The notes under the pieces were generated by a model. It worked only from the letters and a program-made list of their open reading frames with translations, searched no databases and was not told where the DNA came from. DNA of 64,000 nucleotides from Minisyncoccota bacterium (GTDB lineage: Bacteria > Patescibacteriota > Minisyncoccia > Phycocordibacterales > UBA5272): the NCBI GenBank assembly GCA_041651055.1, contig JBAZJW010000001.1:177021-241020 (forward strand), given 5' to 3'. How positions within the stretch are numbered: position 1 is the stretch's first letter; each line of letters begins with the position of its first letter. Below are positions 14,877-45,145 of the stretch, piece by piece. Made by a program: the position numbers and the translations under genes.

Positions 14877-15593
14877 CTACTTCAAAGCAAACGGGTTGAA
14901 GTTTGTCCCGTGATCGTAGGTATCCAACCCCTCCTTCTCCTTAACAATTTTAATCACCCTTCTAGTAACTGGTAGGGCAAGAACCTCCCATGTAGTACAG
15001 AAAAGCACAGTAGATATAACAAGCGGTACAAGCTCTGGAAGAGTAAACCATCCGGCAAAGTAGAAGACAGCAAAGAAAGCAATTCCGTTATCTACGATTT
15101 GTCCGAATAATGTTGAAATCACAAGTCTTGCATTGAGATACTTTCCTTTGAAATGCAGTTTCATTTTCGCAACTATGTATGAGTTTGTCAGTTCACCAGA
15201 AAAGAACGCAACAATAAAAGCAACAGCAACGATTGGTGAAGCTTTAAAGATAGCGTTGAATGCATCATTTAATTCAAATGACGGGTTTGGAACGATGCTG
15301 TAAATGTATGTAAGTGTTGAAGCTAGTAACATACATCCAAATCCAGTCCATACGACTTTTCTAGTAACTCTGTATCCATATACTTCAGTAAAGATATCAG
15401 CAAAAATATAAACAAATGGATACGCTAACGCACCAACTGAGAAAACAAACGTCCCTATGTAAAAAGTTTTTAAAGAAGTAAATACCCCTACAAGAAGAAC
15501 CGTAACCCACAGCATCGCAAAAATGATTAAGTACTTATGAGGCTGATGCGCCGAAATCACTGGATCCGTTATGAGTGCGTTGTTTTGGGTCAT
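14877..15593 (-). CDS. YhhQ/VUT family membrane protein, putative queuosine-precursor transporter (cassette 3)
   Basis: YPFVYIFADIFTEVYGYRVTRKVVW resembles the YhhQ conserved block. Confidence 0.55.
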   Translation of the reverse strand: MTQNNALITDPVISAHQPHKYLIIFAMLWVTVLLVGVFTSLKTFYIGTFVFSVGALAYPFVYIFADIFTEVYGYRVTRKVVWTGFGCMLLASTLTYIYSIVPNPSFELNDAFNAIFKASPIVAVAFIVAFFSGELTNSYIVAKMKLHFKGKYLNARLVISTLFGQIVDNGIAFFAVFYFAGWFTLPELVPLVISTVLFCTTWEVLALPVTRRVIKIVKEKEGLDTYDHGTNFNPFALK

Positions 15594-16473: not shown

Positions 16474-16800
16474 ATGCTTACCGTAACCGAAGTCCCAACC
16501 AAGTCTATCCGGCTATCCGTCCAGATTGAAGATATGGAAATTGGAAGAGCTTGGCTTGTATTGATCAAAAATGACCTCCACTTAAAACCTTACGGCCTTC
16601 TTGAAGATGTGTGGGTTGACTCTAATCACAGAAAGCAAGGTCACGCCACAGCTCTTGTGCAAAAGATCATTGAAATAGCTAAACAAGAAGGCTGTTACAA
16701 GATTATTGCAACAAGTCGTTTCGAACGAGAGAAAGTTCACGACTTATACAAACATCTGGGCTTTATTTCTCACGGATTTGAGTTCAGAATTAATTTGTAA
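16474..16800 (+). CDS. GNAT family N-acetyltransferase (cassette 5)
   Basis: VWVDSNHRKQGHATALVQKIIEIAKQEGCYKI acetyl-CoA binding motif A. Confidence 0.7.
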   Translation: MLTVTEVPTKSIRLSVQIEDMEIGRAWLVLIKNDLHLKPYGLLEDVWVDSNHRKQGHATALVQKIIEIAKQEGCYKIIATSRFEREKVHDLYKHLGFISHGFEFRINL

Positions 16801-16828
16801 AATAAATTCCAGTCAATCAAGAGTTGCA

Positions 16829-16858
16829 GACCCACTTCGGTGGGCTTTTCTTTTTCTA
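16829..16858 (+). terminator. rho-independent terminator
   Basis: CCCAC-TTCG-GTGGG hairpin followed by CTTTTCTTTTTC. Confidence 0.5.
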
Positions 16859-16864
16859 AAAACT

Positions 16865-16894
16865 CAAGCTGGGGCTCTGGGACGACGTTGGAAC
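16865..16894 (+). repeat. intergenic motif copy #5
   Basis: CAAGCTGGGGCTCTGGGACGACGTTGGAAC. Confidence 0.55.
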
Positions 16895-16960
16895 AGAATT
16901 ATTTACTTCGAGTTCTATAAAATAAGTAAGAATTTTCATGTAAAAACGTCATCATATATT

Positions 16961-17512
16961 ATGAAAGTAAAGCACTTGCAACAATCTGGGGAAAAGAGTA
17001 GTGTTAATAGTCTTAATAAAGACTATACTAAAGATATGCTTACTAAGAATCTTCAGCTTCTTAGCTACCTTACAAAGAAGCACCCTCATGCTTCAGTAAC
17101 TGTGTTAATTAAATTATGCTATTTAGTTGATTTAGTTAGTATTAAAAATGGTAGTGAGAAGATTTCAAATTTTACATATATCAGATACTTTTATGGACCT
17201 TTTGACAAAAGTATCTACACAGAATTAGACCAATTACTTGAAAGTGGTGTATTAATAGCAACACCAGAATACAAAGGCGATTCTGAAACAATAATTTATT
17301 CTTTCAACGAAGAAAAGAAACTAGATACTTCCGCTTTAGATAAAAATGAAATAGCTATTCTTGATGAAGTACTAGATTCACTCGATGGGTATGGAGCAAA
17401 GGCACTTACAGATGTTGCCTACAGTACTGCGCCTATGCAAGCACTTAACGCAACTTTAGGTGGTGACGAAAATCTTGGTGTTGAACTTAATCTAAACTTA
17501 GTAAGAGCTTAA
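16961..17512 (+). CDS. Panacea-domain (DUF4065, SocA/PanA-like) protein, candidate antitoxin
   Basis: VTVLIKLCYLVDLVSIKNGSEKISNFTYIRYFYGPFDKSIYTEL matches the KLLYLaD ... yGPv..vY core of the Panacea domain as I remember it; start set at ATG 16961 downstream of GNAT terminator. Confidence 0.45.
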   Translation: MKVKHLQQSGEKSSVNSLNKDYTKDMLTKNLQLLSYLTKKHPHASVTVLIKLCYLVDLVSIKNGSEKISNFTYIRYFYGPFDKSIYTELDQLLESGVLIATPEYKGDSETIIYSFNEEKKLDTSALDKNEIAILDEVLDSLDGYGAKALTDVAYSTAPMQALNATLGGDENLGVELNLNLVRA

Positions 17513-17517
17513 TTTTT

Positions 17518-18030
17518 ATGCCAATGTCTGACGCTGAACATCTAGCTTGTATTAAGCCACGTTCAGCATACATGGACTTCAGGTCATTAGAAGAATCTAC
17601 AGGTGAAGTTAATGCAAAGTATAAATTACTGACAAAAAAATTAGCAGGTGTTTATTTTTTTCACGTTCTTACAAAGAGTGGGATAACTTATCCTCAAGAA
17701 TATCGCATGGAGATACTCAGAAATGATTGGGAATCGCGTGAGCCCCATCCAAGAGGAATGCACCTTGATGAAGATGCTTCGTATTTAGGTTGTCAGCATT
17801 TCCATATGATGAGTGAAAGAGATGTACTCCTTAAAAGGAAAGAATTTCGTAATGGTTTCAATATAAGTGGGCTGTTAAGTCAGACAAAATTTACAGAAGT
17901 TACAGATTTTATAAAAAGAAGTGGAGGTGTCTACTCAAGAAAATCTAATGTAGTGATTCAAGAAGATATAGAGTCTGTTTTTAATAAAGGGGTTATATCG
18001 GATAAAATAAGAAATAAACTCGGGCTTTAA
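17518..18030 (+). CDS. hypothetical protein, candidate toxin partner of the Panacea-domain gene
   Basis: 170 aa ORF starting 6 nt after upstream stop; no recognisable domain. Confidence 0.35.
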   Translation: MPMSDAEHLACIKPRSAYMDFRSLEESTGEVNAKYKLLTKKLAGVYFFHVLTKSGITYPQEYRMEILRNDWESREPHPRGMHLDEDASYLGCQHFHMMSERDVLLKRKEFRNGFNISGLLSQTKFTEVTDFIKRSGGVYSRKSNVVIQEDIESVFNKGVISDKIRNKLGL

Positions 18031-18049: not shown

Positions 18050-19711
18050 TTAAGATAATCCATCAATATACTGTATTGGTGTTATACCATAATCCCACAC
18101 AGTTGAACTTCTTGAAGGGTCAACTGCCCCATGAACCGCAACACCAAGAACACCATTGTCTTTATCAACTACTGGTGAACCACTCATTCCTTTGTAAATC
18201 GGTTTATCAATTGTAAATCTCTCAATACTAAGTATTCCTATACCGTTACTTTTTGAACTAATTTTTCCTTCGTAACATTGTGGAGTGTCATTGGTTCTAT
18301 ATCCAGGAAATCCAACAACCGTTATAGCCTCTTTAATTTGAGGAGTTTCAATTGTGCTTTTTTCAAGACTAAAGAATGTTACTGTTGTTGGTGCTAATAT
18401 TTTTAAAACTGCTAAATCAGGAATAGAGCTTTGTTTTACAACCTCAGCTTTGTATACGTCCTTAGTTTCAGAGTTGTAAACTTCAACTATTCCACAAGCA
18501 CCATCTATAACATGATAACAAGTTACAAGCCCAACATCTCTCAACATGAAAGCTGTGCCAGTATATCCGACAGAAGTTTTAATTACCCATATTGCACGTT
18601 TCAATTCATCAATTGCACTAACAGGTAAGTCTACTGAGTGTGGGTCTATTAAACGATTAAGCCTATTTTTAAACTTCCTGTATATTGGATCTTTCCCACT
18701 TCTGATAAATTTTAAGAAAGATATTTTCCCATATAAAACTGGTGTTAGATCTGGTTCATCTTGACGACTGGGATGTAATCTAAAATACACGTTCGAGGCA
18801 TTTACTTTTCCAAATCTTTCCCAAGCATATAATATTGTTCTCAATTCTCTAATGTATTTTCTGGAAACATTACTAAATTCATTAACGGTAAGGCCAGTAA
18901 CTTCTTGTCTCATATAATGTCTCTGTAACCTAACTTTTGACTGATTAATTGAGAAATTATTTTTTTGAATGATTGAAGTTAATTTTTGTCCACATGTAAT
19001 TATTCCGTGTGAACGGGAAACAATATCAAGATTTAGTTCTCTAGAGTTTGTAGAAAAAGTAATGTCATCTGCATATCTTGTATATAAACAATTAGTTTCT
19101 TTTGCTAACTTTTGTAAATCATTATCTAATGTATAGCAAATTAGATTTGATATAACTGGAGAAGTGGGGGCTCCTTGTGGAAGCTTACCCTCATAACAAC
19201 AAATTTGAGCAAGTAAAATTGCAACTTCTCTTGGGAAAGAAAAAGCTGTTGATTGAAATAATCCTATTATACGACCTACATGAATTGATGGGAAGAAGTT
19301 TTCTAAATCAATATTAAAAACAAGATTTTTTCTTGCGTGTAGTCTTGCGTTATCTAAAATATCTTTATCTTTACAAAATCCATAAACAGATGATTTTGGT
19401 TTATAAGCTAAGTATAGAATATATGCCAATTTTTTTTGTAAAATTTTAAGATTAGATATTGGTGCTAAAATCTCTCTTTGTCCACCACTTTTTTTCTTAA
19501 TATAAAATTTTGTATACGGAACTGGTTTATCTGGTCTGTAAAGTAGGTAAATTATTGTAGAGTAGTCAACCTCTAAAAGGTCAGCAACGTCTTGTTTGCT
19601 TTTTAGTGCTCTAAAAATTTTTAGAATATCGTCATCACTTCTTGTTAAGGTTGGTTTCATTTCTGTGTAAAAGAGAGAGTGGAATAATTCTTCCTCCTGC
19701 AAAACAAACAC
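18050..19711 (-). CDS. retron-type reverse transcriptase fused to C-terminal trypsin-like (S1) serine protease
   Basis: RT motifs KKKSGGQREI, NARLH (NAxxH), FNIDLENFFPSI, LPQGAPTSPVISN, YTRYADD, RQEVTGLTVN (VTG); C-terminal GTAFMLRDVGLVTCYHV (His), IPDLAVL (Asp), GMSGSPV (Ser) triad; GTG start. Confidence 0.8.
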   Translation of the reverse strand: MFVLQEEELFHSLFYTEMKPTLTRSDDDILKIFRALKSKQDVADLLEVDYSTIIYLLYRPDKPVPYTKFYIKKKSGGQREILAPISNLKILQKKLAYILYLAYKPKSSVYGFCKDKDILDNARLHARKNLVFNIDLENFFPSIHVGRIIGLFQSTAFSFPREVAILLAQICCYEGKLPQGAPTSPVISNLICYTLDNDLQKLAKETNCLYTRYADDITFSTNSRELNLDIVSRSHGIITCGQKLTSIIQKNNFSINQSKVRLQRHYMRQEVTGLTVNEFSNVSRKYIRELRTILYAWERFGKVNASNVYFRLHPSRQDEPDLTPVLYGKISFLKFIRSGKDPIYRKFKNRLNRLIDPHSVDLPVSAIDELKRAIWVIKTSVGYTGTAFMLRDVGLVTCYHVIDGACGIVEVYNSETKDVYKAEVVKQSSIPDLAVLKILAPTTVTFFSLEKSTIETPQIKEAITVVGFPGYRTNDTPQCYEGKISSKSNGIGILSIERFTIDKPIYKGMSGSPVVDKDNGVLGVAVHGAVDPSRSSTVWDYGITPIQYIDGLS

Positions 19712-19828
19712 ACTTACATAGCAACATTTGCCAAAAACACAAGGGCACGTATCATCTCACCTTAGATACATCGTCGCGTATACACAACGAATAGCAATTT
19801 CCACTCTCTCTTTTAAAAAGAAACTTAC
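19671..19828 (-). ncRNA. candidate retron msr/msd-like non-coding RNA
   Basis: 13 nt perfect inverted repeat AAGAGAGAGTGGA (19801-19813) / TCCACTCTCTCTT (19671-19683, minus-strand sense) bracketing about 117 nt directly upstream of and overlapping the RT start; TATAAT box about 25 nt upstream on the minus strand. Confidence 0.25.
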
Positions 19829-19918
19829 CAGTTGTATTATAAAACAATTACATTATTAATCCTAAAAATGTATTATTTACTCATGTGTATCTGTTTAAGT
19901 GAGTTGTATCTTCTGTTA

Positions 19919-20128
19919 TTATTTTATAATAAATTTTGCACCGGTCTTCTCCATTAAATCTCCTAGTTGCTTACTCGTCTGCCCCAAACTATTAAATAAT
20001 TCTACAATTCGGGAATCTTTTTCTTGAAGTTGTGCTACAAGTTTTCTGTTATCAATAAATAAACCAGCAGTAGCAATACAAGATATTACTAACAACACTG
20101 CTAAAAGTAGAGTGATTTTAGATTTCAT
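19919..20128 (-). CDS. small secreted or membrane-anchored coiled-coil protein
   Basis: 69 aa, N-terminal MKSKITLLLAVLLVISCIATAG signal/lipobox-like segment. Confidence 0.35.
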   Translation of the reverse strand: MKSKITLLLAVLLVISCIATAGLFIDNRKLVAQLQEKDSRIVELFNSLGQTSKQLGDLMEKTGAKFIIK

Positions 20129-20452
20129 ACGTAAGGTTCTATATTAAATTTTTGGTAGCAAAACACCGCCATAGAAATAGGAGAACCTTACGAGTAGACC
20201 CACTCCATGGCGGAGCTTTTATCACAAGGTATTAGGTTTGTTTTGTAAACATAGCATAACAGGGTACAAGGAACCTCTCCCTCAGTAAACTTTTGTCGTC
20301 ACAAAAGTTTCTTCGGGCAACTCTCGTGGTTTCTTTTGCTAAAGAAACATCACTCCGAGTATTCGAGTCCTTGCCGTGAAGGACCCAACGTCCTTCACTT
20401 ACCCCAGCTCACACGACAAAAAAGCGTACTTCGTACTCGATGAAAAGTGTGA

Positions 20453-20523
20453 GCTGGGGTACAAGGACTCGAACCTCGATACTCAGGACCAAAACCTGAT
20501 GTCCTACCATTAGACGATACCCC
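20453..20523 (-). tRNA. tRNA-Gln (anticodon UUG)
   Basis: Cloverleaf folds by hand: 7 bp acceptor stem (U1-A72), U8, D arm GTCT/GGAC, anticodon stem TCAGG/CCTGA with loop TTTTGGT (U33, anticodon TTG), T arm CGAGG-TTCGAGT-CCTTG, discriminator G, no encoded CCA. Confidence 0.75.
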
Positions 20524-20813
20524 AAGATGTAAGTTTTTAGTTGATAGTTATTATTTTTTAGTTAATGCAAAATGAAATTCATTGTGCGGCATGCAATACC
20601 AAAAAAATGACTATCAGTTATTAGCTAGGAGAAATTAAATTCAGAGAATTTCTTACCCCTAACTCCTAACCGTAAACTCCTAACTAACCAAAACACAATA
20701 CCATTTTTGAGAGATTTTTGGAAGAGGGAAGGAAAGATTCTCGGTGAGAGCGCTGTCACAGTAAGCTTTTTGAAATTATACACAGCGTCCACAGAACACC
20801 ACGAAAATTTTGC

Positions 20814-22412: not shown

Positions 22413-22994
22413 ATGTCATCCATTCCTGCAGACGTTTTATCACGAGCAAATGCAATAGGATTCTTTGGTGTTCTGATTCTTCTCATCGCATATTTCTTTG
22501 AAGGTCCACCACTTGGACTTTTTGATATTGGTAAGCATTTACCATCACAAGAAATACCTACGTATTACCAAGTGACGAAAGTTACCGATGGCGACACGAT
22601 TCATGTGAATATAGAAGGTGCAGATGAGGTGATCCGTCTTATTGGTATCAACACACCTGAAACTGTCGACCCACGACGACCAGTACAATGCTTCGGCAAA
22701 GAAGCCTCTGCCAGAATGAAAGAACTTGTCGGAGGGAAAATAGTACGTCTCGAATATGACGACTCTCAAAGCCTTCGTGATACTTACAATCGTTTACTTG
22801 CTTACGTGTACCTTGAAGACGGGGAAATGATCAATCGTAAAATGATTGCAGAAGGGTATGCCTATGAATACACCTACATGACACCGTACAAATATCAGCG
22901 TGAATTTCGTGAATTACAAACCCTCGCACGCACGTCAGCGCGTGGCCTTTGGGCACCAGAAACCTGTAACGGAAGTAAAACACTTTCGAAATAA
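22413..22994 (+). CDS. membrane-anchored thermonuclease (SNase-like)
   Basis: TDGDTIHVNIEGADEVIRLIGINTPE ... RLLAYVYLEDGEMINRKMIAEGYA typical of staphylococcal nuclease homologues. Confidence 0.75.
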   Translation: MSSIPADVLSRANAIGFFGVLILLIAYFFEGPPLGLFDIGKHLPSQEIPTYYQVTKVTDGDTIHVNIEGADEVIRLIGINTPETVDPRRPVQCFGKEASARMKELVGGKIVRLEYDDSQSLRDTYNRLLAYVYLEDGEMINRKMIAEGYAYEYTYMTPYKYQREFRELQTLARTSARGLWAPETCNGSKTLSK

Positions 22995-26285: not shown

Positions 26286-27344
26286 ATGTCTCCCACCATT
26301 ATCATCACCATTTTCGGCACCATTATCACGGTACTTCTTGCATTACTTCTCATTAAATTAAATACGCCAAAGAAAAAAGACGAAGAGGACCAAACCTTTC
26401 TTATTCTTCAAGACCAACTCGAGCGATTGCGAAATACCGTCGAAAATAAATTGGAACGCTCATCGTCCGAGCTCCATCAAGTACTTCATCGCCAAGGAAC
26501 AGAGGCGAACCGTCTCATCACTGAAATCACCCGTGAACTCACTGAAGTGAAAGAAGGGAACAAGCAAGTTTTCTCCATGACCGAGCAACTTCAAAATCTT
26601 GAAAAGGTTCTGACTCACCAAAAGCAACGAGGAAATCTCGGTGAAGCATCCCTTGAACTCATTCTCTCGAATATGCTCGCCCCAGGCCAGTACGAAATGC
26701 AACACTACTTCAAAAATGGTGAAGTAGTGGACGCCATCATTCATACCAAAGAAGGAATTATTCCTATTGATGCGAAGTATTCACTGGATAATTACCAACG
26801 CCTCATGAATGCAACGGATGAAGAAGAAACAGCGTACTATCAAAATGAATTCAAAAAGGATATTCAAAAAAGAATCGATGAAACCTCAAAGTACATTCGT
26901 CCGGAAGAGGGGACGCTACCCTTTGCTTTCATGTTCATTCCCGCAGAAGGAATATACTACGACCTTCTCGTGAACCAAGTATCAAAAGGTGCTATCAATA
27001 CACAGAATCTTATCGAATATGCGTACAACAAACGAAAAGTAATTATCGTGTCTCCGACGACATTTTATGCATACTTACAATCAGTACTCTATGGATTCAA
27101 GGCGTTTAAGATCGAAGAAAGTGCGAAGCATATTCAACAACGCGTAGAAGAGCTTGGTCGTCACCTCACAGCCTATGAAGACTATATGAAGAAGTTAGGT
27201 GTAACACTTGGCACCAGTGTGAATCATTACAATGCTGCCTATAAAGAATTAAAAAAGGTAGACAAAGATGTACTACGTATTACAGGTGAAGCAATGGGGA
27301 TAGAACCAGCGCTCTTGGATAAGCCGACATTTGAGGAAGAATAA
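26286..27344 (+). CDS. rmuC: DNA recombination protein RmuC
   Basis: N-terminal TM, coiled coil, C-terminal block AFMFIPAEGIYYDLL typical of RmuC. Confidence 0.75.
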   Translation: MSPTIIITIFGTIITVLLALLLIKLNTPKKKDEEDQTFLILQDQLERLRNTVENKLERSSSELHQVLHRQGTEANRLITEITRELTEVKEGNKQVFSMTEQLQNLEKVLTHQKQRGNLGEASLELILSNMLAPGQYEMQHYFKNGEVVDAIIHTKEGIIPIDAKYSLDNYQRLMNATDEEETAYYQNEFKKDIQKRIDETSKYIRPEEGTLPFAFMFIPAEGIYYDLLVNQVSKGAINTQNLIEYAYNKRKVIIVSPTTFYAYLQSVLYGFKAFKIEESAKHIQQRVEELGRHLTAYEDYMKKLGVTLGTSVNHYNAAYKELKKVDKDVLRITGEAMGIEPALLDKPTFEEE

Positions 27345-29116: not shown

Positions 29117-30595
29117 CTAGAATTCTGGTACATTCACCGTTGGCATAGAGAAGTCGCCAAACTCAGACTTTTCAACGGATACGAAAGACGTCTTCTTGTC
29201 ATCAAAGTAAAGCTCAATCATTCCTGTTGGACCGTTACGGTGCTTTTCAATCAAAATTTCTACAATGTTTTTGCGTTCTGTATTCTCGCCGTATTTATCT
29301 TCACGATGAATAAACATAACCACGTCCGCATCTTGTTCGATAGATCCTGAATCACGAAGGTCAGAAAGTCGAGGTTTACCACCACGAGATTCAACAGCAC
29401 GAGAAAGCTGCGAGAGTGCGATCACTGGAGTATTAAATTCCTTGGCAAGCGCTTTCAATGATCGAGAAATTTCTGTCACTTGGTTTACCATATTGTCATA
29501 ACTCTTGGATGTTCCCATCAACTGCAAGTAGTCCACGATAATGAGTCCGATAGGTTTGTCAGTGTTAAGTCGACGAAGTGTACTTCTCATATTCAAAATA
29601 GTATTCGCGGCTTTATCATCGACGAAAATCGGAGCCTTCATGAGCTCGTGCATGCCTTGCTGAAGGCGAGAAAACTCTTCATCAAGGGTGAGCTTCGCAG
29701 TGCGGAGTTTCCAGCTATCCACCTGAGACTGAGCCGAAAGCATACGGTCGACAAGTTGTTCCTTGCTCATTTCCAGTGAGAAAATGGCCACAGGAATACC
29801 ATGCTTCACCGCAGCGTTACGTGCAAAGTCGAGCGCGAGAGATGTCTTTCCAACAGATGGACGTGCCGCGAGAATAATGAGGTCAGATGGCTGAAAGCCA
29901 GAGAGTTTGTTGTCTAAATCTCTGAAGCCACTCGGCGTACCACGCATACCACCATCTTTTTCGGACATCTTTTCAATACGAGACCAGGTTTCATCAATCA
30001 ATTCGTTGAAACCAATAAGACGATCCGAAGATCCACCCTTGGTTGTGATTTCATAAATACTTTTTTCGGATTCTTCGAGGATAGACTCGAGTGAATCAGC
30101 TTCTTCGTAGGCTATTTCTCCAATATGAGATGTTGCCTCGATGAGCTTTCGCAGTAATTCCTTTTTTCGAACAATCTGAGCGTAGTACTTTACGTTTGCC
30201 GCCGAACCAACAAGCCCGAGAAGGTCAGATAAGTACGGTGCACCACCGATTTGATCAAATTCTTTTCTTTGACGAAGCGCAGCTGATACTGTGAGAATAT
30301 CTACTGGTTCTTTTTTGTTGACGAGCTCATCAATGACTTCATAAATAATCTGATGCTTAGCTGCATAAAAACTCTGTGCATTTACAATATCTGCAATATC
30401 AAAAAGTGCATCTGATGAGAGAAGAAGTGACCCAAGCAGTGCCTTTTCAGATTCCAAATCTTGAGGAGGAATGCGCGGACCGCGAAGAGGATCTTCTACC
30501 TGCTTTCGATCGTAGCTTTCATAATTCCCTCCGTATTTCCCACGTGAACGAGGTTTGCTTTTTGAAGAGGCGGATAGTTGGTCAAGTGGAATCAT
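29117..30595 (-). CDS. dnaB: replicative DNA helicase DnaB
   Basis: Walker A ARPSVGKTSLALDFARNAA, RecA-like C-terminal domain. Confidence 0.9.
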   Translation of the reverse strand: MIPLDQLSASSKSKPRSRGKYGGNYESYDRKQVEDPLRGPRIPPQDLESEKALLGSLLLSSDALFDIADIVNAQSFYAAKHQIIYEVIDELVNKKEPVDILTVSAALRQRKEFDQIGGAPYLSDLLGLVGSAANVKYYAQIVRKKELLRKLIEATSHIGEIAYEEADSLESILEESEKSIYEITTKGGSSDRLIGFNELIDETWSRIEKMSEKDGGMRGTPSGFRDLDNKLSGFQPSDLIILAARPSVGKTSLALDFARNAAVKHGIPVAIFSLEMSKEQLVDRMLSAQSQVDSWKLRTAKLTLDEEFSRLQQGMHELMKAPIFVDDKAANTILNMRSTLRRLNTDKPIGLIIVDYLQLMGTSKSYDNMVNQVTEISRSLKALAKEFNTPVIALSQLSRAVESRGGKPRLSDLRDSGSIEQDADVVMFIHREDKYGENTERKNIVEILIEKHRNGPTGMIELYFDDKKTSFVSVEKSEFGDFSMPTVNVPEF

Positions 30596-36727: not shown

Positions 36728-37462
36728 ATGCTCGAACTATATCTCCCCATACTCATTTCACTTTTTATTATTGAAGTTTTGCTTTCTGTCGACAACGCAC
36801 TTGTAAACGCAACACTCGCAGAATCTCTTCCGGAGGAAAAACGAAAGCGCGCGATACGTATCGGTATTTTACTCGGAGCAGTTTTCCGTATCGTCGCACT
36901 TTTCTTGGTGGCGATTATTATTCAAAATGTGTGGCTAAAAGTTTTAGGAGGTCTCTATCTTGTATACCTTGCAATTGCCCATCTTGGAAAAGCGGTAACG
37001 GAAGAAGGTAAAGCCATAACCCCGAAAACCACATATCGAGGGGTCATTATACAAATCGCACTCGCAGACATTGTTTTTAGTATTGATAACGTTATTTCTG
37101 CGGTAAGTTTTTCAGAAAATATTTATATCGTCATGCTGGGTGTCGGCATCGGTGTCATCAGTATGCTTTTCATTACGCCAATTCTTTCGAAACTTATTCA
37201 CAAGTATAAAGGTATGCCACAAGCCGCATATGCAATAGTGGGGATTGTTGGAATAACACTTCTCATTGAAACACTCACAACCCTACACATAACCGAAGCT
37301 GCAAAATTCGCGATGGTTCTTGGTATTGTCTTCTTTACTATATTCTACGAACACAGTCTTAGGTTACGGAGACTTTCAAATCCGATTCTTATCAAATTAC
37401 AATATATCATTGCGCTTCCTCTGGATATCATGTACGCCATCAGAGCCCATCTCCAAAAATAA
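36728..37462 (+). CDS. TerC family membrane protein
   Basis: LSVDNALVNA and IDNVISAVS duplicated TerC motifs. Confidence 0.75.
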   Translation: MLELYLPILISLFIIEVLLSVDNALVNATLAESLPEEKRKRAIRIGILLGAVFRIVALFLVAIIIQNVWLKVLGGLYLVYLAIAHLGKAVTEEGKAITPKTTYRGVIIQIALADIVFSIDNVISAVSFSENIYIVMLGVGIGVISMLFITPILSKLIHKYKGMPQAAYAIVGIVGITLLIETLTTLHITEAAKFAMVLGIVFFTIFYEHSLRLRRLSNPILIKLQYIIALPLDIMYAIRAHLQK

Positions 37463-37492
37463 GAAAGTTGTTTCTTTTGCTATACTGATCTC

Positions 37493-40400
37493 ATGGAACC
37501 AACTTTCGAGAGTCGTTACAAAGCACTCAATCAAGCACAGAAGAAAGCTGTAGATACTACTGACGGCCCTGTGATGGTTATAGCTGGTCCTGGAAGTGGA
37601 AAGACAGAACTTCTCTCACTTCGCGTGGGAAACATTCTTAAAAACGGCACAGCGAAGGCCTCGAACATTCTCCTTCTCACTTTTACTGAGACAGCTGCAC
37701 AAAATATGCGCGAGAGATTGGAAGCGCTCATCGGAGCAGATGCGTATCGTGTCGCTATCTACACCTTCCATGGATTTTGTACGGACATTATAGGGAGATA
37801 CCCGGAATACTTTTTCAATGCCACACACTTCAGACCAGCGAGTGACTTGGCTCAAAGTGAAATTTTGCAGACGATTTTCGAGCATCTTCCTCACAAGCAC
37901 ATACTCGGGAGCTATCACCCAGAGCGAGGGTATGCTTATTTGAAAGAATGTCAGGTGAGAATTAAAGATATTAAAAAAGGTGGACTGACACCGATGAGAT
38001 GGAGGGAGTTGATGGGGGAAAATGCGGCAGCATTTTCCACATTAAACGATATTCTTGCAACCCACCTCCCAGAGCGAATCGGAAAAGATTCTCACACTGC
38101 TTTTGAAACAATGCAATCACTCTTTGAAAAAACGGGAAGCAATCTCGGTCACATGTATGCACTTTCAATTAAAGAAGCACTTGATGAGGTAGACGCTACC
38201 GAAAAAACAACACCACTTTCAGAATGGAAAACAGACTTCACAGGAAAAGACGAGAATGGTAAGCGGGTATTCAAAGATTTTTTGTTGCTTCCGAAGCTTA
38301 TAGCACTCGGAGATGTGTATGAGATGTATCAGAATGCACTTCACACTGCCGGATACTTTGATTATGAAGATATGATTCTTCAAGTAGTGGAAGCTCTCGG
38401 CAAACATGTGACGCTTCGCACAGAGCTTGAAGAAATGTATCAGTACATCATGGTGGACGAATTCCAAGACACCAACAATGCACAACTCTCACTTGTAAAA
38501 GCTATTTCGAGTAACCCAGTGCATGAAGGTAGACCGAATGTCTGTGTGGTAGGGGATGATGATCAAGCCATTTACAAATTCCAAGGGGCGGAGATTTCAA
38601 ACATTCATTCCTTCAAAGAACTTTACAACGATGTGGAGACTATCGTTCTCACAGAAAATTATCGATCGACTCAAAAGGTGCTGGATTTTGCACGTGCCAT
38701 TGTAACCCAAGGTGTGAATCGTCTCGAAACTCGTTATGAAGAAATTAGTAAAGTGCTCATTGCTAAAAATAAAAAACTAGAATCAGGGACCATTTATACA
38801 CAGGCTTTTTCGACAGCCGAAGAAGAGTACGTCTACATCGCTGGAGAAGTGGAACGACATTTAGCAGAAGGTGTTCCTGCAAAAGAGATAGCCCTCATCG
38901 CACGCGAACACAAACAGCTCATTTTATTATTGCCATATCTCGACGCACTCCATGTACCGTACACATACACGCGCAAAGAAAATGTGTTCGACGAGAAACA
39001 TGTAAAAGAACTTATTATGTTATGTCGTTTTTTGGCAACTGTAAGCGATAGCACTAATGAACGAGATGATTTATTGCCGGAGATTTTGGCCTTCCCATTT
39101 TGGGGGCTCAATCGTATCAGTATTTGGCGCATCGCCGAACATGCTAAAAGAGAAAACATTTCGTGGCTTACCGCAATGTCACAGTCGGAAGACATTCGTA
39201 TCAAAGATCTCGCAGCATTCTTGATAGAGCTCGGTGTCGCCAGCCAAACCACACCACTAGAAATTATTTTGGACACGCTCATTGGCAGTAAAGACGTACC
39301 ACTTACAACTGAGTCACCAGAAGATGATGCGAACTTTGACCCGACATCACTTCATTTAGAAACATCTTTCACCTCACCATACAAAGAATACTATTTTGGA
39401 AAAGACGCACTCAAACATAATGCGAGTACATATATTAATTTCCTTTCATCACTTCGTGTTTTTATGCATGCACTTCGTGAATATAAAGAAGGGGAGACCC
39501 TTCGCACGCATGATGTCGGAGCCTTCGTCGATATTCATACTGACTACAATATTCCACTCATCAATGAGACACCCTTTGCGCATAATGAAAACTCTGTGTC
39601 GCTCCTTACCTCTCACGGCGCGAAGGGACTGGAGTTCGCTTATGTCTTTGTCGTGTCCGTTAACGATGCTATTTGGGCCGGAAGTAAAAAGGGGAACAAA
39701 CTTTCATTTCCAATCAACCTTCCACTTGCAAGTGCGGGGGACAACGAGGACGATTTCATTCGACTCTTTTACGTAGCACTCACACGCGCACGTCACACAC
39801 TCTATATCACACATCACAAAAGTCCATTACGATTTTTATCGACGAGTGAATTGCCGGATACAGAAACATCACGCCCAACACTTGAAGTCCCGGACCTTCT
39901 TGCTCACGGTCTTTCTGTGTATCACGCTCCTCCATTTGCAAAAGATGAAAAAGCCTTGCTTCAAAAAGTGGTAGAAGGGTACATGTTGTCACCGACGCAT
40001 CTCAATAACTTTTTGGACTTAACAAAAGGGGGTCCGATGATGTTCCTGGAACAGAACCTCCTTCGTTTTCCTCAAGCCAAGAATGCAAGCAGTGTCTATG
40101 GTACAGCGATTCACAAGGCGCTCGAAGATGCACACATCATGGCTCGCAAAGATGGGAAAGTTCCACCACTTGAAACACTTATCAAAACATTTGTTCATGA
40201 ACTAAAACGTGGCCGCCTACAGGACTTTGAAGAAGATAAATTATTAGCACGTGGAGAAAAAGTGTTGACGCAGTATTACGATATCAAGAAAAAAGATATT
40301 AGCGGTGAACATATTGTCGAACTCAACTTCTCCAAGCAGTCCGTGATGGTTGGCGGAGCATTGCTCACAGGAAAGATAGATAAAATTATTGAAGATGAAA

Positions 40401-40798
40401 ATAAAGACTGGACCGTGGTAGATTTAAAAACAGGAAAAGGATTCAGTGCATGGGACGAGCCGAAGCAAAGTGTGTACGACGAAATAAAACTTCACCACTA
40501 CAAGTACCAACTAATGATGTACAAAGTGCTCGTAGAAAATTCTCGAGATCATAATACGCGGACCGTAAAAGAAGGAGTGCTTGAATTCGTCGAAGAAGAA
40601 GTGGCAGGGAAAATACAAGAGCTGTCGCTTTCTTTTAAAGATAAAGACGTGGAGCACGACCTCGCAAAATTTACCAAGCTTATTATGGCGGTGTACACCA
40701 AAATCACGAACCTCGATTTCCCAGATACAAGCACGTACGCAGAAAGTTTGGAGGGCATCAAAGAATTCGAAGAAGATTTAATCGCCGGAGTTATATAA
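37493..40798 (+). CDS. UvrD/PcrA-type helicase fused to C-terminal RecB-family (PD-(D/E)xK) nuclease, AddA-like
   Basis: Walker A AGPGSGKTE, helicase motifs (DEFQDTN, VVGDDDQAIYKFQGA), C-terminal GKIDKI...VVDLKTGK nuclease motif. Confidence 0.8.
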   Translation: MEPTFESRYKALNQAQKKAVDTTDGPVMVIAGPGSGKTELLSLRVGNILKNGTAKASNILLLTFTETAAQNMRERLEALIGADAYRVAIYTFHGFCTDIIGRYPEYFFNATHFRPASDLAQSEILQTIFEHLPHKHILGSYHPERGYAYLKECQVRIKDIKKGGLTPMRWRELMGENAAAFSTLNDILATHLPERIGKDSHTAFETMQSLFEKTGSNLGHMYALSIKEALDEVDATEKTTPLSEWKTDFTGKDENGKRVFKDFLLLPKLIALGDVYEMYQNALHTAGYFDYEDMILQVVEALGKHVTLRTELEEMYQYIMVDEFQDTNNAQLSLVKAISSNPVHEGRPNVCVVGDDDQAIYKFQGAEISNIHSFKELYNDVETIVLTENYRSTQKVLDFARAIVTQGVNRLETRYEEISKVLIAKNKKLESGTIYTQAFSTAEEEYVYIAGEVERHLAEGVPAKEIALIAREHKQLILLLPYLDALHVPYTYTRKENVFDEKHVKELIMLCRFLATVSDSTNERDDLLPEILAFPFWGLNRISIWRIAEHAKRENISWLTAMSQSEDIRIKDLAAFLIELGVASQTTPLEIILDTLIGSKDVPLTTESPEDDANFDPTSLHLETSFTSPYKEYYFGKDALKHNASTYINFLSSLRVFMHALREYKEGETLRTHDVGAFVDIHTDYNIPLINETPFAHNENSVSLLTSHGAKGLEFAYVFVVSVNDAIWAGSKKGNKLSFPINLPLASAGDNEDDFIRLFYVALTRARHTLYITHHKSPLRFLSTSELPDTETSRPTLEVPDLLAHGLSVYHAPPFAKDEKALLQKVVEGYMLSPTHLNNFLDLTKGGPMMFLEQNLLRFPQAKNASSVYGTAIHKALEDAHIMARKDGKVPPLETLIKTFVHELKRGRLQDFEEDKLLARGEKVLTQYYDIKKKDISGEHIVELNFSKQSVMVGGALLTGKIDKIIEDENKDWTVVDLKTGKGFSAWDEPKQSVYDEIKLHHYKYQLMMYKVLVENSRDHNTRTVKEGVLEFVEEEVAGKIQELSLSFKDKDVEHDLAKFTKLIMAVYTKITNLDFPDTSTYAESLEGIKEFEEDLIAGVI

Positions 40799-40802
40799 CT
40801 GT

Positions 40803-41114
40803 GTGAAAAAAGTAAATGAACGAGGAACGCACACGACAACTATTGAGGGTGCAAAAGATATACTGAAAGCTTTTAATAAAATTGGAGTGGTTGTATCGCC
40901 TGGGGTAATCGAAGCCAATGCAAAATCAAGAGGCAAAAGCGTGAAGTTAAAAAAAGTAAACAATGAGACATTCGAAATGGTTGTCGTTGTGAATAGTAGC
41001 AAACAAACATTCAAAGTATACGGTGAAAATCAAAGAGATATTATCAAGCTTATCAATAGTTTCAAATCAGAAAATTGGAATGTGCAGAAGGTGTTGGATA
41101 TTTCGGGAAAATAA
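40803..41114 (+). CDS. hypothetical protein
   Basis: 103 aa ORF 5 nt after helicase stop; followed by terminator 41142-41178. Confidence 0.35.
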   Translation: MKKVNERGTHTTTIEGAKDILKAFNKIGVVVSPGVIEANAKSRGKSVKLKKVNNETFEMVVVVNSSKQTFKVYGENQRDIIKLINSFKSENWNVQKVLDISGK

Positions 41115-41187
41115 AACACAGTAGCAAAATATAAGGCAAATAAAAAAGCCGTCCCGTAGGGGCGGCCTTTGTTGCGAACAAGGAAGG

Positions 41188-41598
41188 TCAGGCTTCAATA
41201 CGAATCCTGCTGTTGTACGCATCCCACAACTTGCGAAGAGCAAGGGGGTACTGCACCCGGAAGTTATTGTGGAGCTCATTTCCCACTTCAACCCTTGGGG
41301 CAAGGACGAAGGCTCCGAGATTGAATATTTTCCTGTTCTTGAGGTGCCTTGCGAACCTGCTGGAAAATCTCTTGTTCGGAAAGGCTTCAAAGAAGCTGAT
41401 AACCGGGAAATTTTCCCAATTGGCGCCGTCCTGAAACATCTCCCTTAAAGCTTTGAGATCACTGAGAGCCTTCGGGGCCTCCAGTTTTCCTTGGCGATCG
41501 AGGATTTCAACCCTTTCAATCGCCCAGTTGACAGCGAACTTTGCCTGAGCCAAATGTTCAGGGTCGGGTTTTTCCTTCTTTTTCACAGAGGTTACCAT
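41188..41598 (-). CDS. hypothetical protein (GC-rich insert)
   Basis: ATG preceded by AAGGAGAAGCTC RBS; about 52% GC. Confidence 0.35.
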   Translation of the reverse strand: MVTSVKKKEKPDPEHLAQAKFAVNWAIERVEILDRQGKLEAPKALSDLKALREMFQDGANWENFPVISFFEAFPNKRFSSRFARHLKNRKIFNLGAFVLAPRVEVGNELHNNFRVQYPLALRKLWDAYNSRIRIEA

Positions 41599-42053
41599 GA
41601 GCTTCTCCTTGAGGTTGTTGCGTGGTGGTTACCACGGGCGGCCGGGGTCCTTGCTTGCAGAGCAAGTGCGTACAAGTGGCGCTGCCTCTCCGCGCCAGAC
41701 TTTTCGAGCTCGTGAAGAATGAAAAACAGTTCCCGTGTGGAAGCTGTTAGGAATGCCGACACTGTCGAGATCCCAACTTCTTCAAAACGAAGAACTGTCA
41801 TCTTGCACGTACAAATCTCTCCCAGCGCAAAATCAATAGGGCCAAGAGATTCAGAAACGGAGATGCGAGCATGGAGCAACAGTTCTAACGCCCCTCTCAG
41901 TCGTGCGGCATCCTCTTCCGTAACTTCCAAAGGGGGAAGGAATCTTAACGCAAAATCATTTTTAAGTCGCAACAATAGACGACAAGACTGAGCGGCGTGA
42001 GATAAGTCATTCCTCATCTCCACTCGGTCCAAAAGATGTGGCTTTTGATTCAT
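41592..42053 (-). CDS. hypothetical protein (GC-rich insert)
   Basis: Start set at ATG with GAAGGAAAACC RBS; ORF-track version 41592..42203. Confidence 0.3.
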   Translation of the reverse strand: MNQKPHLLDRVEMRNDLSHAAQSCRLLLRLKNDFALRFLPPLEVTEEDAARLRGALELLLHARISVSESLGPIDFALGEICTCKMTVLRFEEVGISTVSAFLTASTRELFFILHELEKSGAERQRHLYALALQARTPAARGNHHATTSRRSSW

Positions 42054-42203
42054 GGTTTTCCTTCTTATTGTGATCACCTTACGGGGATCGGGGTTGAAAA
42101 AACTAAGAACTGAAGGGAATACTATACCACGCAGATAGTTTGAGGTCAATAATTTTTTACATGCACAACAACCCTTTCCTCTTACTGCTATACTAGAATA
42201 CAT

Positions 42204-43091
42204 ATGCCAGACAAATATTCAGCAGTATGGGTGTCACATTCTTCGATGGGGGACTTTCTAAAATGTCCTCGACTGTACTACTTGCACAACATGTACAAGA
42301 GTCCAAAAACGGGACACAAGATGTCTATCGTGAGTCCACACATGTCTCTCGGTATCGCAGTACATGAAGTATTGGAAGGGCTCGCGGAATATCCATCACA
42401 TGAAAGAATGAACATTGACCTTCGTGCAAAGTTCGAAGAAGCTTGGCTTAAGGTGACGGGGAAAAAAGGAGGGTTCACCTCAGTCGACGAAGAGGAGGGG
42501 TTCAAGTCTCGCGGCAAAGAAATGATAAACAACGTCATCAAAGATCCACGTTTTTTACCGAATAAATGCATCAAGCTAAAGCGCGATACCATGCCGTGTA
42601 ATTTTTACATTAGCGAAGATCACAATATTATTCTAAACGGCCTTGTTGACTGGATTGAATATCTTCCAGAAACCGACTCCCTTCATATTGTTGACTTCAA
42701 AACAGGAAAGCATGAGGAGAAAGAAGGGTCACTGCAACTTCCAATTTATCTTTTGCTTTGTAATGCATTACAAAAGCGTGCAGTGACGAAGGCGAGTTAT
42801 TGGTATCTCGAAACAGACGAAATGAAAGAGGTGTCTCTCCCCGACAAAGACAAGGCCGAGAAAGATGTGCTCGCTATCGCCATGCAAGTAAAAGAAGCTC
42901 GCGTGAAAGCAAAGAGAGAAGGTGAGAAGAGCGTATTCGTTTGTCCACAGGGGCCGTATAATCCAGAAACAAAAGAAGGCGGATGTTTCGGGTGTCGGCC
43001 ATATGAGATGATTCTTGCGGGCGACGAAAGCATGGAATCAGTCGGTATCGGAGGGTTCAATCAGGACATGTACATAGTAAGAACTATGTAA
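42204..43091 (+). CDS. PD-(D/E)xK nuclease with C-terminal Cys cluster (Cas4/AddB-nuclease-like)
   Basis: IVDFKTGK nuclease motif; C-terminal CPQGPYNPETKEGGCFGCRPYE cysteines typical of Fe-S nucleases. Confidence 0.6.
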   Translation: MPDKYSAVWVSHSSMGDFLKCPRLYYLHNMYKSPKTGHKMSIVSPHMSLGIAVHEVLEGLAEYPSHERMNIDLRAKFEEAWLKVTGKKGGFTSVDEEEGFKSRGKEMINNVIKDPRFLPNKCIKLKRDTMPCNFYISEDHNIILNGLVDWIEYLPETDSLHIVDFKTGKHEEKEGSLQLPIYLLLCNALQKRAVTKASYWYLETDEMKEVSLPDKDKAEKDVLAIAMQVKEARVKAKREGEKSVFVCPQGPYNPETKEGGCFGCRPYEMILAGDESMESVGIGGFNQDMYIVRTM

Positions 43092-43100
43092 ACTATTCAT

Positions 43101-43577
43101 ATGACAAAAATAACAACAAAACAATTATTGCTTGCTCAAACTATTGTTCTTCTTCTTGGAACACTCTTTGCATGGTCAAAACTACTGGAACAAATAAGCA
43201 CATTCCAACTTCGCTATGGTACTTTATTTCGCTTTCGCGACTGTACACTACCAAACCCATTTACCACACCGTGTCTCTATGGATCTATTGCTTTTCTTGT
43301 CGCTCTTGCGTGGAGTTATTATCTTTTCCTCAAACCAAATGAAAAGCAAGAAAGACTCCTTCGCAATTTTCTCATCTTTTGTGTGGCTTTTGCCGGTACA
43401 GTATTTGCGTATGAACTCATCGACTATTACAAAGTGTTTGATACCGGGGGCATTATCAAAAGCTGCTCACCGGGGACCGTGCCATTTAAGACACCATGTT
43501 TCTACGGACTGATATTCTTTACCTTAGCGTGCAGTGTTTCATTTGTCATTACAAAAAACAAAAAACTCCACTTGTAA
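43101..43577 (+). CDS. membrane protein with internally duplicated Cys motif
   Basis: DCTLPNPFTTPCLYG and SCSPGTVPFKTPCFYG each followed by a TM helix. Confidence 0.4.
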   Translation: MTKITTKQLLLAQTIVLLLGTLFAWSKLLEQISTFQLRYGTLFRFRDCTLPNPFTTPCLYGSIAFLVALAWSYYLFLKPNEKQERLLRNFLIFCVAFAGTVFAYELIDYYKVFDTGGIIKSCSPGTVPFKTPCFYGLIFFTLACSVSFVITKNKKLHL

Positions 43578-43604
43578 TATCCAAAAAGTGATACACTTAT
43601 TATT

Positions 43605-44000
43605 ATGAATACATACGATTACTATCTAACACTTATCAGACCAACATGGGCGCCACCAGCATGGATATTTGGCCCTGTCTGGACCGTGCTGTATATCATC
43701 ATTGCGGTTACGTTTGGGTATGTCTTGTATCAGTGTTGGAAAGGTAAACTTACAAGGGGGACATTCTTTCCTTTCATGCTCAACATTATCTTTAACCTTG
43801 CGTTTACACCAATTCAATTCGGATTACAGAACAACCTCCTCGCGTCTCTTGATATCATTTTAGTTCTCATCACTCTTCTTTGGGCAATGTTTTCTATACA
43901 AAAGAAATATACATGGGTAGCACTTGCAAACTTTCCTTACCTCGTATGGGTATCCTTCGCAACCGTACTACAACTTACAGTCACCTATTTAAATCTCTAA
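43605..44000 (+). CDS. tspO: TspO/MBR family protein
   Basis: IRPTWAPPAWIFGPVWTVLYIIIAVTFGY matches the TspO conserved N-terminal block. Confidence 0.7.
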   Translation: MNTYDYYLTLIRPTWAPPAWIFGPVWTVLYIIIAVTFGYVLYQCWKGKLTRGTFFPFMLNIIFNLAFTPIQFGLQNNLLASLDIILVLITLLWAMFSIQKKYTWVALANFPYLVWVSFATVLQLTVTYLNL

Positions 44001-44456
44001 ATGGCAGCAACTAAAACTAAACAAAAATATTTACTCGGAGTAGTTTTACTTATTCTTGGAATTTATCTTGGTGGGGGACTTGTGCAGTATGTACATGAAC
44101 AGAAAAAAGAAACAGCTAAGAAGCAAGTGGCAGATGATCTTAACAATACAGACACCCGTGTCAAAGGTTTGTATACGCAGATGAGCAACACCCTCTATGA
44201 CTCGATTCCGGATAAAGATTTCGTAAACTTCGCAAAGACTATCATCGAACCACGATGTCCATTCTATGTGCCTAACGGCATCACATATCGTGAATGTCTC
44301 TCAGATTGGGAACAAGGTCTCGAAGCAAAAACATTGACTGAAGCCGTGGATGAAGTGCATGCGTATTGCACAACATTTACAAAAAAGTATACCGACGAAA
44401 GCTCTCTTGAAGGGCAAGAGCTTTTTCTCAAATGTGCCATCTATAAACTTCAGTGA
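44001..44456 (+). CDS. hypothetical membrane-anchored protein
   Basis: N-terminal TM, Cys-containing body; terminator at 44483-44516. Confidence 0.35.
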   Translation: MAATKTKQKYLLGVVLLILGIYLGGGLVQYVHEQKKETAKKQVADDLNNTDTRVKGLYTQMSNTLYDSIPDKDFVNFAKTIIEPRCPFYVPNGITYRECLSDWEQGLEAKTLTEAVDEVHAYCTTFTKKYTDESSLEGQELFLKCAIYKLQ

Positions 44457-44551
44457 CAGTAAGAAAATAACAAAGAGAAAATAAAGAGCGGTGCCACAGG
44501 CACCGCTCTTTATTTGAATTATTTTAGTTATACACAGTTGTTCTATTGTAC

Positions 44552-44567
44552 TAGAACAACTGTTCTA
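44552..44567 (+). promoter_or_regulatory. LexA (SOS) box TAGAACAACTGTTCTA overlapping the lexA promoter
   Basis: GAAC-N4-GTTC palindrome 6 nt upstream of TAGAAT -10, which is 2 nt upstream of the lexA ATG; a third half-site GTTCTA lies at 44540-44545. Confidence 0.55.
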
Positions 44568-44581
44568 CTACACTAGAATAC

Positions 44582-45145
44582 ATGAAAGACGATCAAGAAC
44601 TAGCAGCATTCTTCACGAGATGGAAGCGCATGCCGACATACGAAGAAATGAAAGATCTTTTCGGTGTCGCTTCGAAAAACACCGTCGCGTACAGAGTCAA
44701 AAAAATGATTGAGGCCGGTATATTGGAGAAGAATGGCAACAAGCTCTCTCTCGTACAAACAGGCAGCGTCATGAGGCTTGGAACCGTTCAGGCGGGATTC
44801 CCGACAGCGGCCGAAGAAGATATCGCCTCAGAACTCATGTCACTCGATGACTTCCTTATCGAAAGAAAACAATCGACCTATATGTTAGAAGTCAGAGGGG
44901 AGTCAATGAAAGACGCAGGTATCATGGAAGGAGATCTCGTGCTCGTAGAAAGAGGAAGGACGGCCAAAAGAGGAGACATCGTCCTTGCCCTCGTAGACAA
45001 TGAATACACGCTTAAATATTTAGAAACAGAAAAAGGTAAACCCGTACTCGTTCCCGCAAACAAAGCTTTCAAAAAAATTTATCCTAACCCAAACACCTTA
45101 CGCATAGAAGCAGTCCTTAAAGCAGTTATTAGAAAATACAAATAA
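44582..45145 (+). CDS. lexA: LexA-family repressor (S24 peptidase)
   Basis: N-terminal wHTH, VQAGFP cleavage-site region, EVRGESM (Ser) and KRGDIVLA (Lys) S24 dyad. Confidence 0.8.
   Translation: MKDDQELAAFFTRWKRMPTYEEMKDLFGVASKNTVAYRVKKMIEAGILEKNGNKLSLVQTGSVMRLGTVQAGFPTAAEEDIASELMSLDDFLIERKQSTYMLEVRGESMKDAGIMEGDLVLVERGRTAKRGDIVLALVDNEYTLKYLETEKGKPVLVPANKAFKKIYPNPNTLRIEAVLKAVIRKYK

Follow-up and report, generated by a model that had tools for sequence, protein, structure and literature searches.

A 64 kb stretch of contig JBAZJW010000001.1 of a Minisyncoccota bacterium (hereafter the window; G+C about 41%), which belongs to the candidate phyla radiation (CPR), encodes a LexA repressor and, upstream of it, a UvrD-type helicase-nuclease and a Cas4-like nuclease. 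Very probably the window holds one genuine SOS element, the operator in the lexA promoter, and both a palindrome in front of the helicase gene and a 12-mer shared by the lexA and Cas4-like promoters are coincidental features of ordinary promoters of the leaderless type. A first-pass annotation had linked all three genes through these elements.

The LexA operator is a perfect 16 bp palindrome, TAGAAC-AACT-GTTCTA (TAGAACAACTGTTCTA), which fills the 17-nt spacer between the -35 and -10 elements of the lexA promoter, the classic position for steric repression. The box of the Gram-positive type (GAAC-N4-GTTC) recognised here in the first pass is borne out by comparison. Fifty-seven lexA loci were taken from species-representative genomes; 35 of their promoters belong to the same LexA subfamily (protein identity of 57-87%) and without exception keep the order TTGnnn, TAGAAC-N4-GTTCTA, one base, TAnnnT, 6-7 nt and ATG. 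In distant Patescibacteria with LexA proteins of 37-55% identity the core is also kept, as TTGACA-GTGAAC-N4-GTTCAC-C-TATACT in some and with AAGAAC-N4-GTTCTT in others, and the C of GAAC and the G of GTTC are invariant across about 50 operator sites. An operator matrix trained on the 35 orthologous lexA sites, with the window site left out, gives training scores of 19.8-32.8 bits; on both strands of the 64 kb it scores the lexA site at 27.5 bits and the runner-up at 1.9 bits. GAAC-N4-GTTC occurs three times in the window, the two copies besides the lexA box being intragenic. No other LexA-regulated gene was found near lexA or the helicase gene in 1.35 Mb of related loci, where the matches were conserved coding sequence, such as the ENYRS motif of the helicase. 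From its conservation the lexA box is predicted to be a genuine autoregulatory LexA operator of the Cheo type.

The third half-site noted earlier at this promoter stands as well, since GTTCTA abuts the -35 element and keeps its exact position in 27 of 36 promoters. It is considered auxiliary because the nine promoters that are devoid of GTTCTA still keep the palindrome, and it probably assists the binding of LexA. The -10 element, in turn, has to be reassigned. The hexamer TAGAAT, previously taken for the -10, is present as quoted, but the conserved -10 is TACACT at 44569-44574. Since transcription normally starts about 7 nt downstream of a -10, a hexamer that stops 2 nt short of the ATG cannot give a transcript that includes this codon; TAGAAT is therefore rejected as the -10, the orthologues all having TAnnnT at 6-7 nt from the ATG. 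The sequence TAGAA recurs after the -10, 6-7 nt past the box, in 7 of 36 lexA promoters, as opposed to 3 of 60 helicase promoters, and is not generally conserved; all seven of these lexA promoters also carry the upstream auxiliary half-site. Further upstream lies a strong bidirectional intrinsic terminator, which is predicted to insulate the lexA promoter from transcription of the upstream gene.

LexA of the window is a 187 amino acid protein that is 100% identical to a Candidatus Paceibacterota protein named LexA-family regulator by NCBI, and its cluster is named LexA by both NCBI and JGI. Residues 17-184 align to residues 25-197 of E. coli LexA, and the C-terminal part matches Peptidase_S24 in Pfam (E = 6e-26). 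The cleavage site Ala71-Gly72 and the Ser108/Lys145 dyad are invariant among orthologues, and A71, G72, S108 and K145 line up with the VAAG, SMKD and VKRL motifs of the E. coli protein. Unlike the LexA of the known Cheo-box systems, it has a divergent N-terminal domain, for which a Pfam search returned no match to LexA_DNA_bind, and TIGR00498 covers residues 15-186 at 104.1 bits, just under the equivalog cut-off of 110.95. Downstream of lexA, and syntenic with it in 33 related loci, is a gene for a 143 amino acid protein whose match to the Y-family polymerase (IMS) domain is only partial and which may represent a truncated polymerase-like SOS partner.

According to the LexA/RecA paradigm, a LexA dimer would bind the spacer palindrome and block RNA polymerase, and DNA damage would trigger RecA-stimulated self-cleavage of LexA at Ala71-Gly72 and so derepress lexA. 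The lexA transcript is predicted to start at or next to the ATG, 7 nt past the -10 and without a Shine-Dalgarno sequence, which would make it leaderless, and it possibly extends into the IMS-like gene.

Such a start would be in keeping with the promoters of the window at large. In the 50 nt upstream of 76 open reading frames (ORFs), 74 of which were counted, a -10-like hexamer (TATACT, TATAAT, TACACT or similar, often after TGn) recurs 5-9 nt ahead of the start codon. A strict -10 pattern is found at this distance for 19/74 ORFs compared to 1.4% of random positions, and a loose one for 27/74 compared to 9%. Shine-Dalgarno-like sequences (GGAG, GAGG or AGGA, 4-10 nt upstream of the start) precede only 3/74 ORFs, the random rate being higher at 5.5%. 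We infer that, for the most part, the first gene of an operon is expressed from a leaderless or near-leaderless mRNA, with a predicted start site. The ORFs at 13822-14154, 26286-27344, 29117-30595 and 43605-44000 are examples of this type. The helicase-nuclease and Cas4-like genes likewise appear to have LexA-independent extended -10 promoters (TGnTATACT) that would give leaderless or near-leaderless transcripts. Many helicase orthologues keep a -10 of the TATACT type at about 6-8 nt from the ATG, TGn-extended in several, and TATACT is kept in 9/9 orthologues of the Cas4-like gene, with TG two bases upstream in about six and with no conservation of the bases that follow. A generic sigma-70 consensus scan called none of the three promoters, because they are of the weak -35 or extended -10 types, and yielded terminators alone.

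The palindrome in front of the helicase gene, AAGAAA-GTTG-TTTCTT (AAGAAAGTTGTTTCTT), starts inside the stop codon of terC and contains the 14-mer AGAAAGTTGTTTCT at 37462-37475, which ends 5 nt before a TATACT (37481-37486) that lies 6 nt before the ATG at 37493. The string and its spacing to TATACT are as first reported, but its position is not that of the lexA box, since the gap from the full palindrome to the true -10 is 4 nt here and 1 nt at lexA. The proposal that it is a weak or divergent LexA operator, which would place the AddA-like helicase-nuclease under partial SOS control, draws on the shared 6-N4-6 geometry, on its location close to the promoter, on the DNA-repair type of the enzyme and on a second near-match, GAACCAACTTTC, which overlaps the start codon at 37496-37507 and with one core mismatch is the nearest core match near the helicase. 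The palindrome itself departs from TAGAAC-N4-GTTCTA at 4 of the 12 specified bases, among them the last base of GAAC and the first of GTTC, the two positions at which the roughly 50 operator sites show no variation. It is unremarkable because the window holds 29 sites with three or fewer mismatches where 32 are expected by chance, and it scores -6.5 bits with the operator matrix, ranking 52nd in the window. The relaxed form GAAM-N4-KTTC, suggested earlier for a wider scan, matches 15 sites in the window as opposed to 8.6 expected, five of them in or at the helicase gene, and this excess is a codon effect because the sites are mostly in-frame GAA...TTC codons inside the helicase ORF. The GAACCAACTTTC match is likewise within chance expectation, as it follows from conserved M-E-x-x-F-E codons.

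Orthologues speak against a LexA site as well. The lexA loci contributed five helicase orthologues to the comparison and a metagenome scan 80 loci, together giving 66 upstream regions (-150 to +20). GAAC-N4-GTTC is present in 0/66 of them, no type of box is enriched, and the best matches have 0, 1, 2 or 3 mismatches in 0, 5, 24 and 37 regions, respectively, compared to 0.1, 2.6, 25.6 and 36.7 in shuffled sequence; the same test on lexA promoters recovers 35/35 perfect boxes. GAAA-N4-TTTC occurs upstream of the helicase gene in the window only. Even L010, the closest relative in synteny and with the same terC-helicase junction, lacks the palindrome, and 465 kb of metagenomic loci contain no box near the helicase apart from a conserved coding motif. 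The palindrome is thus rejected as a LexA site on its matrix score, its mismatch count and its absence from the orthologous regions, and SOS control of the helicase through it is extremely improbable. Another function, as the site of a different regulator or in the weak termination or attenuation of terC transcription, is improbable to a slightly lesser degree. The repeat is a perfect 6+6 inverted one located right after the terC stop and upstream of the helicase -10, and its exact form AAGAAA-N4-TTTCTT is unique in the window, but its hairpin lacks a G-C-rich stem and folds no better as RNA than shuffled sequence (z = 0.63), so that it is not a credible terminator. Moreover, neither L010 nor any other orthologue conserves it, and from base composition a 64 kb sequence should hold by chance about 18 palindromes of this geometry (6-bp arms, 4-nt spacer). 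The simplest view is that of an A/T-rich inverted repeat that has arisen by chance where terC ends.

The 12-mer ACTAGAATACAT is indeed identical at the Cas4-like gene and at lexA, as first described, but it abuts the ATG at the nuclease gene only; at lexA it runs into the start codon, so that with respect to the ATG one copy is shifted by 2 nt against the other. It is made up of ACT (the end of TAYACT), AGAATAC from the spacer, and AT. That it is a specific cis-element co-regulating lexA and the Cas4-like nuclease, either through the half-site-like TAGAAT or as the site of another factor, is very improbable. In favour of such an element are the exact identity over 12 nt, the resemblance of ACTAGAA to the left operator half ACTAGAAC and the recurrence of TAGAA after the -10 in lexA promoters that also have the auxiliary half-site. 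On the other hand, 0/9 orthologues of the Cas4-like gene keep anything past TATACT, most of the 35 lexA orthologues differ across the stretch, and the nuclease promoter has no partner half-site. The 8-mer TAGAATAC occurs three times in the window, with about three copies expected from base composition, and the 1.35 Mb of related loci show no enrichment of CTAGAATAC. It is rejected as a factor site for this lack of enrichment; the palindrome TAGAATACTTTAAAGTATTCTA, present upstream of the helicase orthologue in L058/L059, lies within the C-terminal codons (LEYFKVF*) of the preceding gene. Among 12-mers in general, 759 different ones are repeated in the window. The promoters of two unrelated genes, for a vitamin-uptake-type transporter (14877-15593) and a staphylococcal-nuclease homologue (22413-22994), similarly share the 8-nt TTACACAT after the -10 with the same 2-nt shift in register, which suggests that certain start contexts (...AC-ATG or ...ACAT-ATG) are preferred, instead of gene-specific regulation. 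The 12-mer would accordingly be the tail of the -10 together with a spacer and start context that happen to be identical, which is essentially the common -10/start context that had been named beforehand as the alternative to a shared module.

A different reading of the lexA promoter itself is that the operator is a direct repeat (TGTTCTA, 22 bp, TGTTCTA) and the palindrome incidental. GTTCTA does recur 22 bp apart (44540 and 44562) in the 27 promoters with the auxiliary half-site. A study by Sanchez-Osuna, Barbe and Erill from 2017 (Environ Microbiol 19:3465) reportedly dealt with the LexA motif and SOS network in Patescibacteria, the same superphylum and the same question as here. This sole published study of a Patescibacteria LexA is, in the passage of a later paper that mentions it, placed among the cases of direct-repeat LexA motifs (PMC7739468, ref. 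52). The lineages sampled here carry a palindromic box of the Cheo type, unlike the motif as cited in that passage. The promoters that lack the upstream GTTCTA all keep the palindrome, the distant lineages (L037-L053) keep the palindrome only, and it matches the experimentally established Cheo core GAAC-N4-GTTC (PMC2248561). A direct-repeat operator is therefore considered improbable.

The Cheo box of B. subtilis is the DinR/LexA operator CGAACRNRYGTTYC, with the Firmicutes consensus TACGAACATATGTTCGTA, and is found in one to three sites or half-sites per lexA promoter (PMC2248561). The consensus derived here, TAGAACATTTGTTCTA, has the identical GAAC-N4-GTTC core and an A/T-rich spacer, and like the Cheo box lies in the lexA promoter, where it would serve autoregulation. 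It differs in its flanks, which are TA/TA (TAGAAC...GTTCTA) and not C/G (CGAAC...GTTCG), in filling the -35/-10 spacer of a putative leaderless promoter and in its CPR host. The window operator is thus predicted to add a CPR lineage to the Cheo-box family, in a superphylum for which the published account is cited, in the passage above, as a direct repeat.

Several points count against the conclusion that the lexA operator is the only SOS element. The organism is uncultured, and promoter elements, leaderless starts and repression are read from conservation and the LexA paradigm. A weak site acquired in this lineage alone might still exist, lying as it would beyond the reach of comparative genomics, and the matrix may be too strict because it was trained on lexA promoters alone, which usually hold the strongest sites. 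TAGAAT at lexA is perhaps not neutral and might be a weak additional, fourth half-site-like element. When promoters are anchored on the -10, the sharing of all nine following bases by 2 of 24 promoters arises in 0.6% of column permutations (p ~0.006), so that the coincidence proposed for the 12-mer is nominally unusual. The direct-repeat motif for which the published Patescibacteria study is cited belongs here too.

Upstream of the -35 element the lexA promoter carries a DnaA-box-like 9-mer, TTATACACA, which fits the consensus TTATNCACA, and relatives have the consensus DnaA box TTATCCACA at this position. In a survey of lexA loci L001-L049 such a 9-mer was present in 41/51 lexA promoters (for example L009 9938 and L038 4624), compared to 0.19% of random 70-nt windows. 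The conservation is confined to exactly 9 bp, with variation mainly at position 5 (C/A/G), which is degenerate in TTATNCACA; seven lexA promoters carry the variant TTATCCCCA. The gap between the box and the -35 is 8-10 nt in 23 loci and 18-20 nt in 18, with none in between, and these two classes are one helical turn apart, which is what a protein that has to face RNA polymerase would require. In seven related loci TTATCCACA also lies about 31 nt upstream of the -10 (TATAAT) of a conserved mraZ promoter. The transcript of this locus has GTGGG repeats, followed by an MraZ-like protein and genes that resemble a cell-division cluster by size and position only; an Rfam search of the first 6 kb of L009, including the region downstream of its DnaA box, where the gene is mraZ, gave no match. 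One further locus, L039, has within 20 kb eight copies of an extended motif, GGTACTTTATCCACAGGTA, with the DnaA box inside, on both strands and often beside terminators, which may be a dispersed repeat found genome-wide in that lineage.

DnaA of B. subtilis binds and represses the yllB(mraZ)/ftsL promoter (PMC2533591), and the same 9-mer is located upstream of mraZ promoters in the relatives examined here. In E. coli, uvrB and recN are co-regulated by DnaA and LexA (PMC8203912). The lexA promoters described above similarly have a consensus DnaA box beside a LexA operator, but here lexA itself would be the target, and its one box is found in either of two separate helical phases upstream of the -35; no published report of a DnaA box at lexA promoters was found. 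The upstream 9-mer would probably add an input of replication status. It is tentatively suggested, at somewhat less than even chances, that the Paceibacterota lexA promoter integrates a damage input through the spacer operator with a replication-status input through the DnaA box, and that in these minimal genomes DnaA would thereby directly tune the level of the SOS repressor together with cell division.

Table 1. Positions of the features discussed, given in window coordinates unless a related locus is named
Feature	Position	Strand	Evidence or remark
Palindrome AAGAAAGTTGTTTCTT at the end of terC	37461..37476		probable chance A/T-rich inverted repeat
Extended -10 TGcTATACT of the helicase-nuclease gene	37478..37486	+	6 nt before ATG; conserved in many orthologues
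UvrD-type helicase with C-terminal PD-(D/E)XK nuclease, 1101 amino acids, AddA/RecB-like architecture	37493..40798	+	UvrD-helicase, UvrD_C and PDDEXK_1 domains
Extended -10 TGcTATACT of the Cas4-like gene	42186..42194	+	9 nt before ATG; orthologue comparison
12-mer ACTAGAATACAT, copy 1 (last 3 nt of -10 and 9-nt spacer)	42192..42203	+	Cas4-like promoter, abuts ATG
Cas4-like PD-(D/E)XK nuclease, 295 amino acids	42204..43091	+	Pfam/NCBIfam match
Bidirectional intrinsic terminator	44479..44515		17-pair stem, 8 of the pairs G-C; each strand has a T tail
DnaA-box-like 9-mer TTATACACA	44528..44536	+	9 nt upstream of -35; conserved at lexA promoters
Putative auxiliary LexA half-site GTTCTA	44540..44545	+	abuts -35; exact position kept in 27/36 promoters
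lexA -35 element TTGTAC	44546..44551	+	TTGnnn directly 5' of the box in 36/36 subfamily promoters; 17 nt to -10
Predicted LexA operator TAGAACAACTGTTCTA	44552..44567		perfect palindrome; 27.5 bits; kept in 35/35 orthologues
lexA -10 element TACACT	44569..44574	+	7 nt before ATG (44582); TAnnnT one base past the box in all orthologues
12-mer ACTAGAATACAT, copy 2 (last 3 nt of -10, 7-nt spacer and AT of ATG)	44572..44583	+	lexA promoter
TAGAAT, -10 proposed earlier	44574..44579	+	6 nt past the box, 2 nt before ATG
lexA, 187 amino acids, winged-HTH N-terminal and S24 self-cleaving C-terminal domain	44582..45145	+	Pfam, NCBIfam, alignment to E. coli LexA
Small Y-family-polymerase (IMS)-like protein, 143 amino acids	45293..45724	+	PF00817 (IMS), E = 2.9e-8
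mraZ-type DnaA-box sites in related loci	L009 1818, L011 1626, L013 1881, L014 1258, L019 3905, L020 2191, L021 3585
Copies of GGTACTTTATCCACAGGTA in L039	3628, 3781, 4478, 9503, 9538, 10994, 13714, 15248

The earlier gene calls for the helicase-nuclease, the Cas4-like nuclease and lexA are upheld by Pfam and NCBIfam searches. The helicase-nuclease resembles AddA and RecB in that a UvrD-type SF1 helicase is followed by a PD-(D/E)XK nuclease, and the Cas4-like gene for a second PD-(D/E)XK nuclease is close to it in five related loci. It falls far below the cut-off of every NCBIfam equivalog, all AddA and RecB models included (105.9 bits against 707.65 for addA_Gpos), and the candidate partner, at 295 amino acids and Cas4-like, differs from AddB, which has about 1100. 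Neither gene shows evidence of SOS regulation here. In some relatives a repeated intergenic element precedes both of them, comprising aaaaattagaaattaaaaatt and then the palindrome AACACTGCCCC(A)AGCAGTGTT; it was found in L001 (upstream of 2873 and 7588), L004 (upstream of 116) and L061 and is possibly a small repeat of a mobile or terminator-like kind. In the window, the helicase operon is separated from the Cas4-like gene by two overlapping minus-strand ORFs (41188-42056; 136 and about 154 amino acids) with no family matches, a G+C content of 50% and almost no counterpart in related loci. The second of them has a Shine-Dalgarno sequence and a promoter, TTGACC-17-TATAGT, at 42149-42121, and the pair looks like a recent insertion that is possibly toxin-antitoxin-like.

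Elsewhere in the window, the minus strand at 18050-19711 encodes a retron-type reverse transcriptase fused to a trypsin-like protease, which matches NCBIfam models of retron Ec67/TIR-type reverse transcriptases at E ~1e-100, yet below their cut-offs, and is probably a defence system in this CPR genome. The adjoining 740 nt (19712-20452) are free of ORFs and could hold a retron non-coding RNA; they are followed by a tRNA-Gln at 20453-20524, the sole match when the window was scanned with Rfam and for tRNAs. A SocA/Panacea antitoxin domain protein (16706-17512) and the unannotated ORF of 170 amino acids beside it (17518-18030) form a possible toxin-antitoxin pair that adjoins the retron-like gene.

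For annotation, palindromes at repair genes that look like SOS boxes need to be checked at the invariant positions and in orthologues before they are labelled as such, and promoters in these genomes have to be read in a leaderless frame, with the -10 at 6-9 nt from the ATG, as -10 elements and operators are otherwise mis-assigned. If the DnaA box acts as suggested, replication initiation, SOS control and cell division would be linked in minimal genomes in a way that is open to direct testing. Overall, lexA of a large uncultured CPR lineage appears to be autoregulated through a Cheo-type operator, which probably controls the neighbouring IMS-like gene too.

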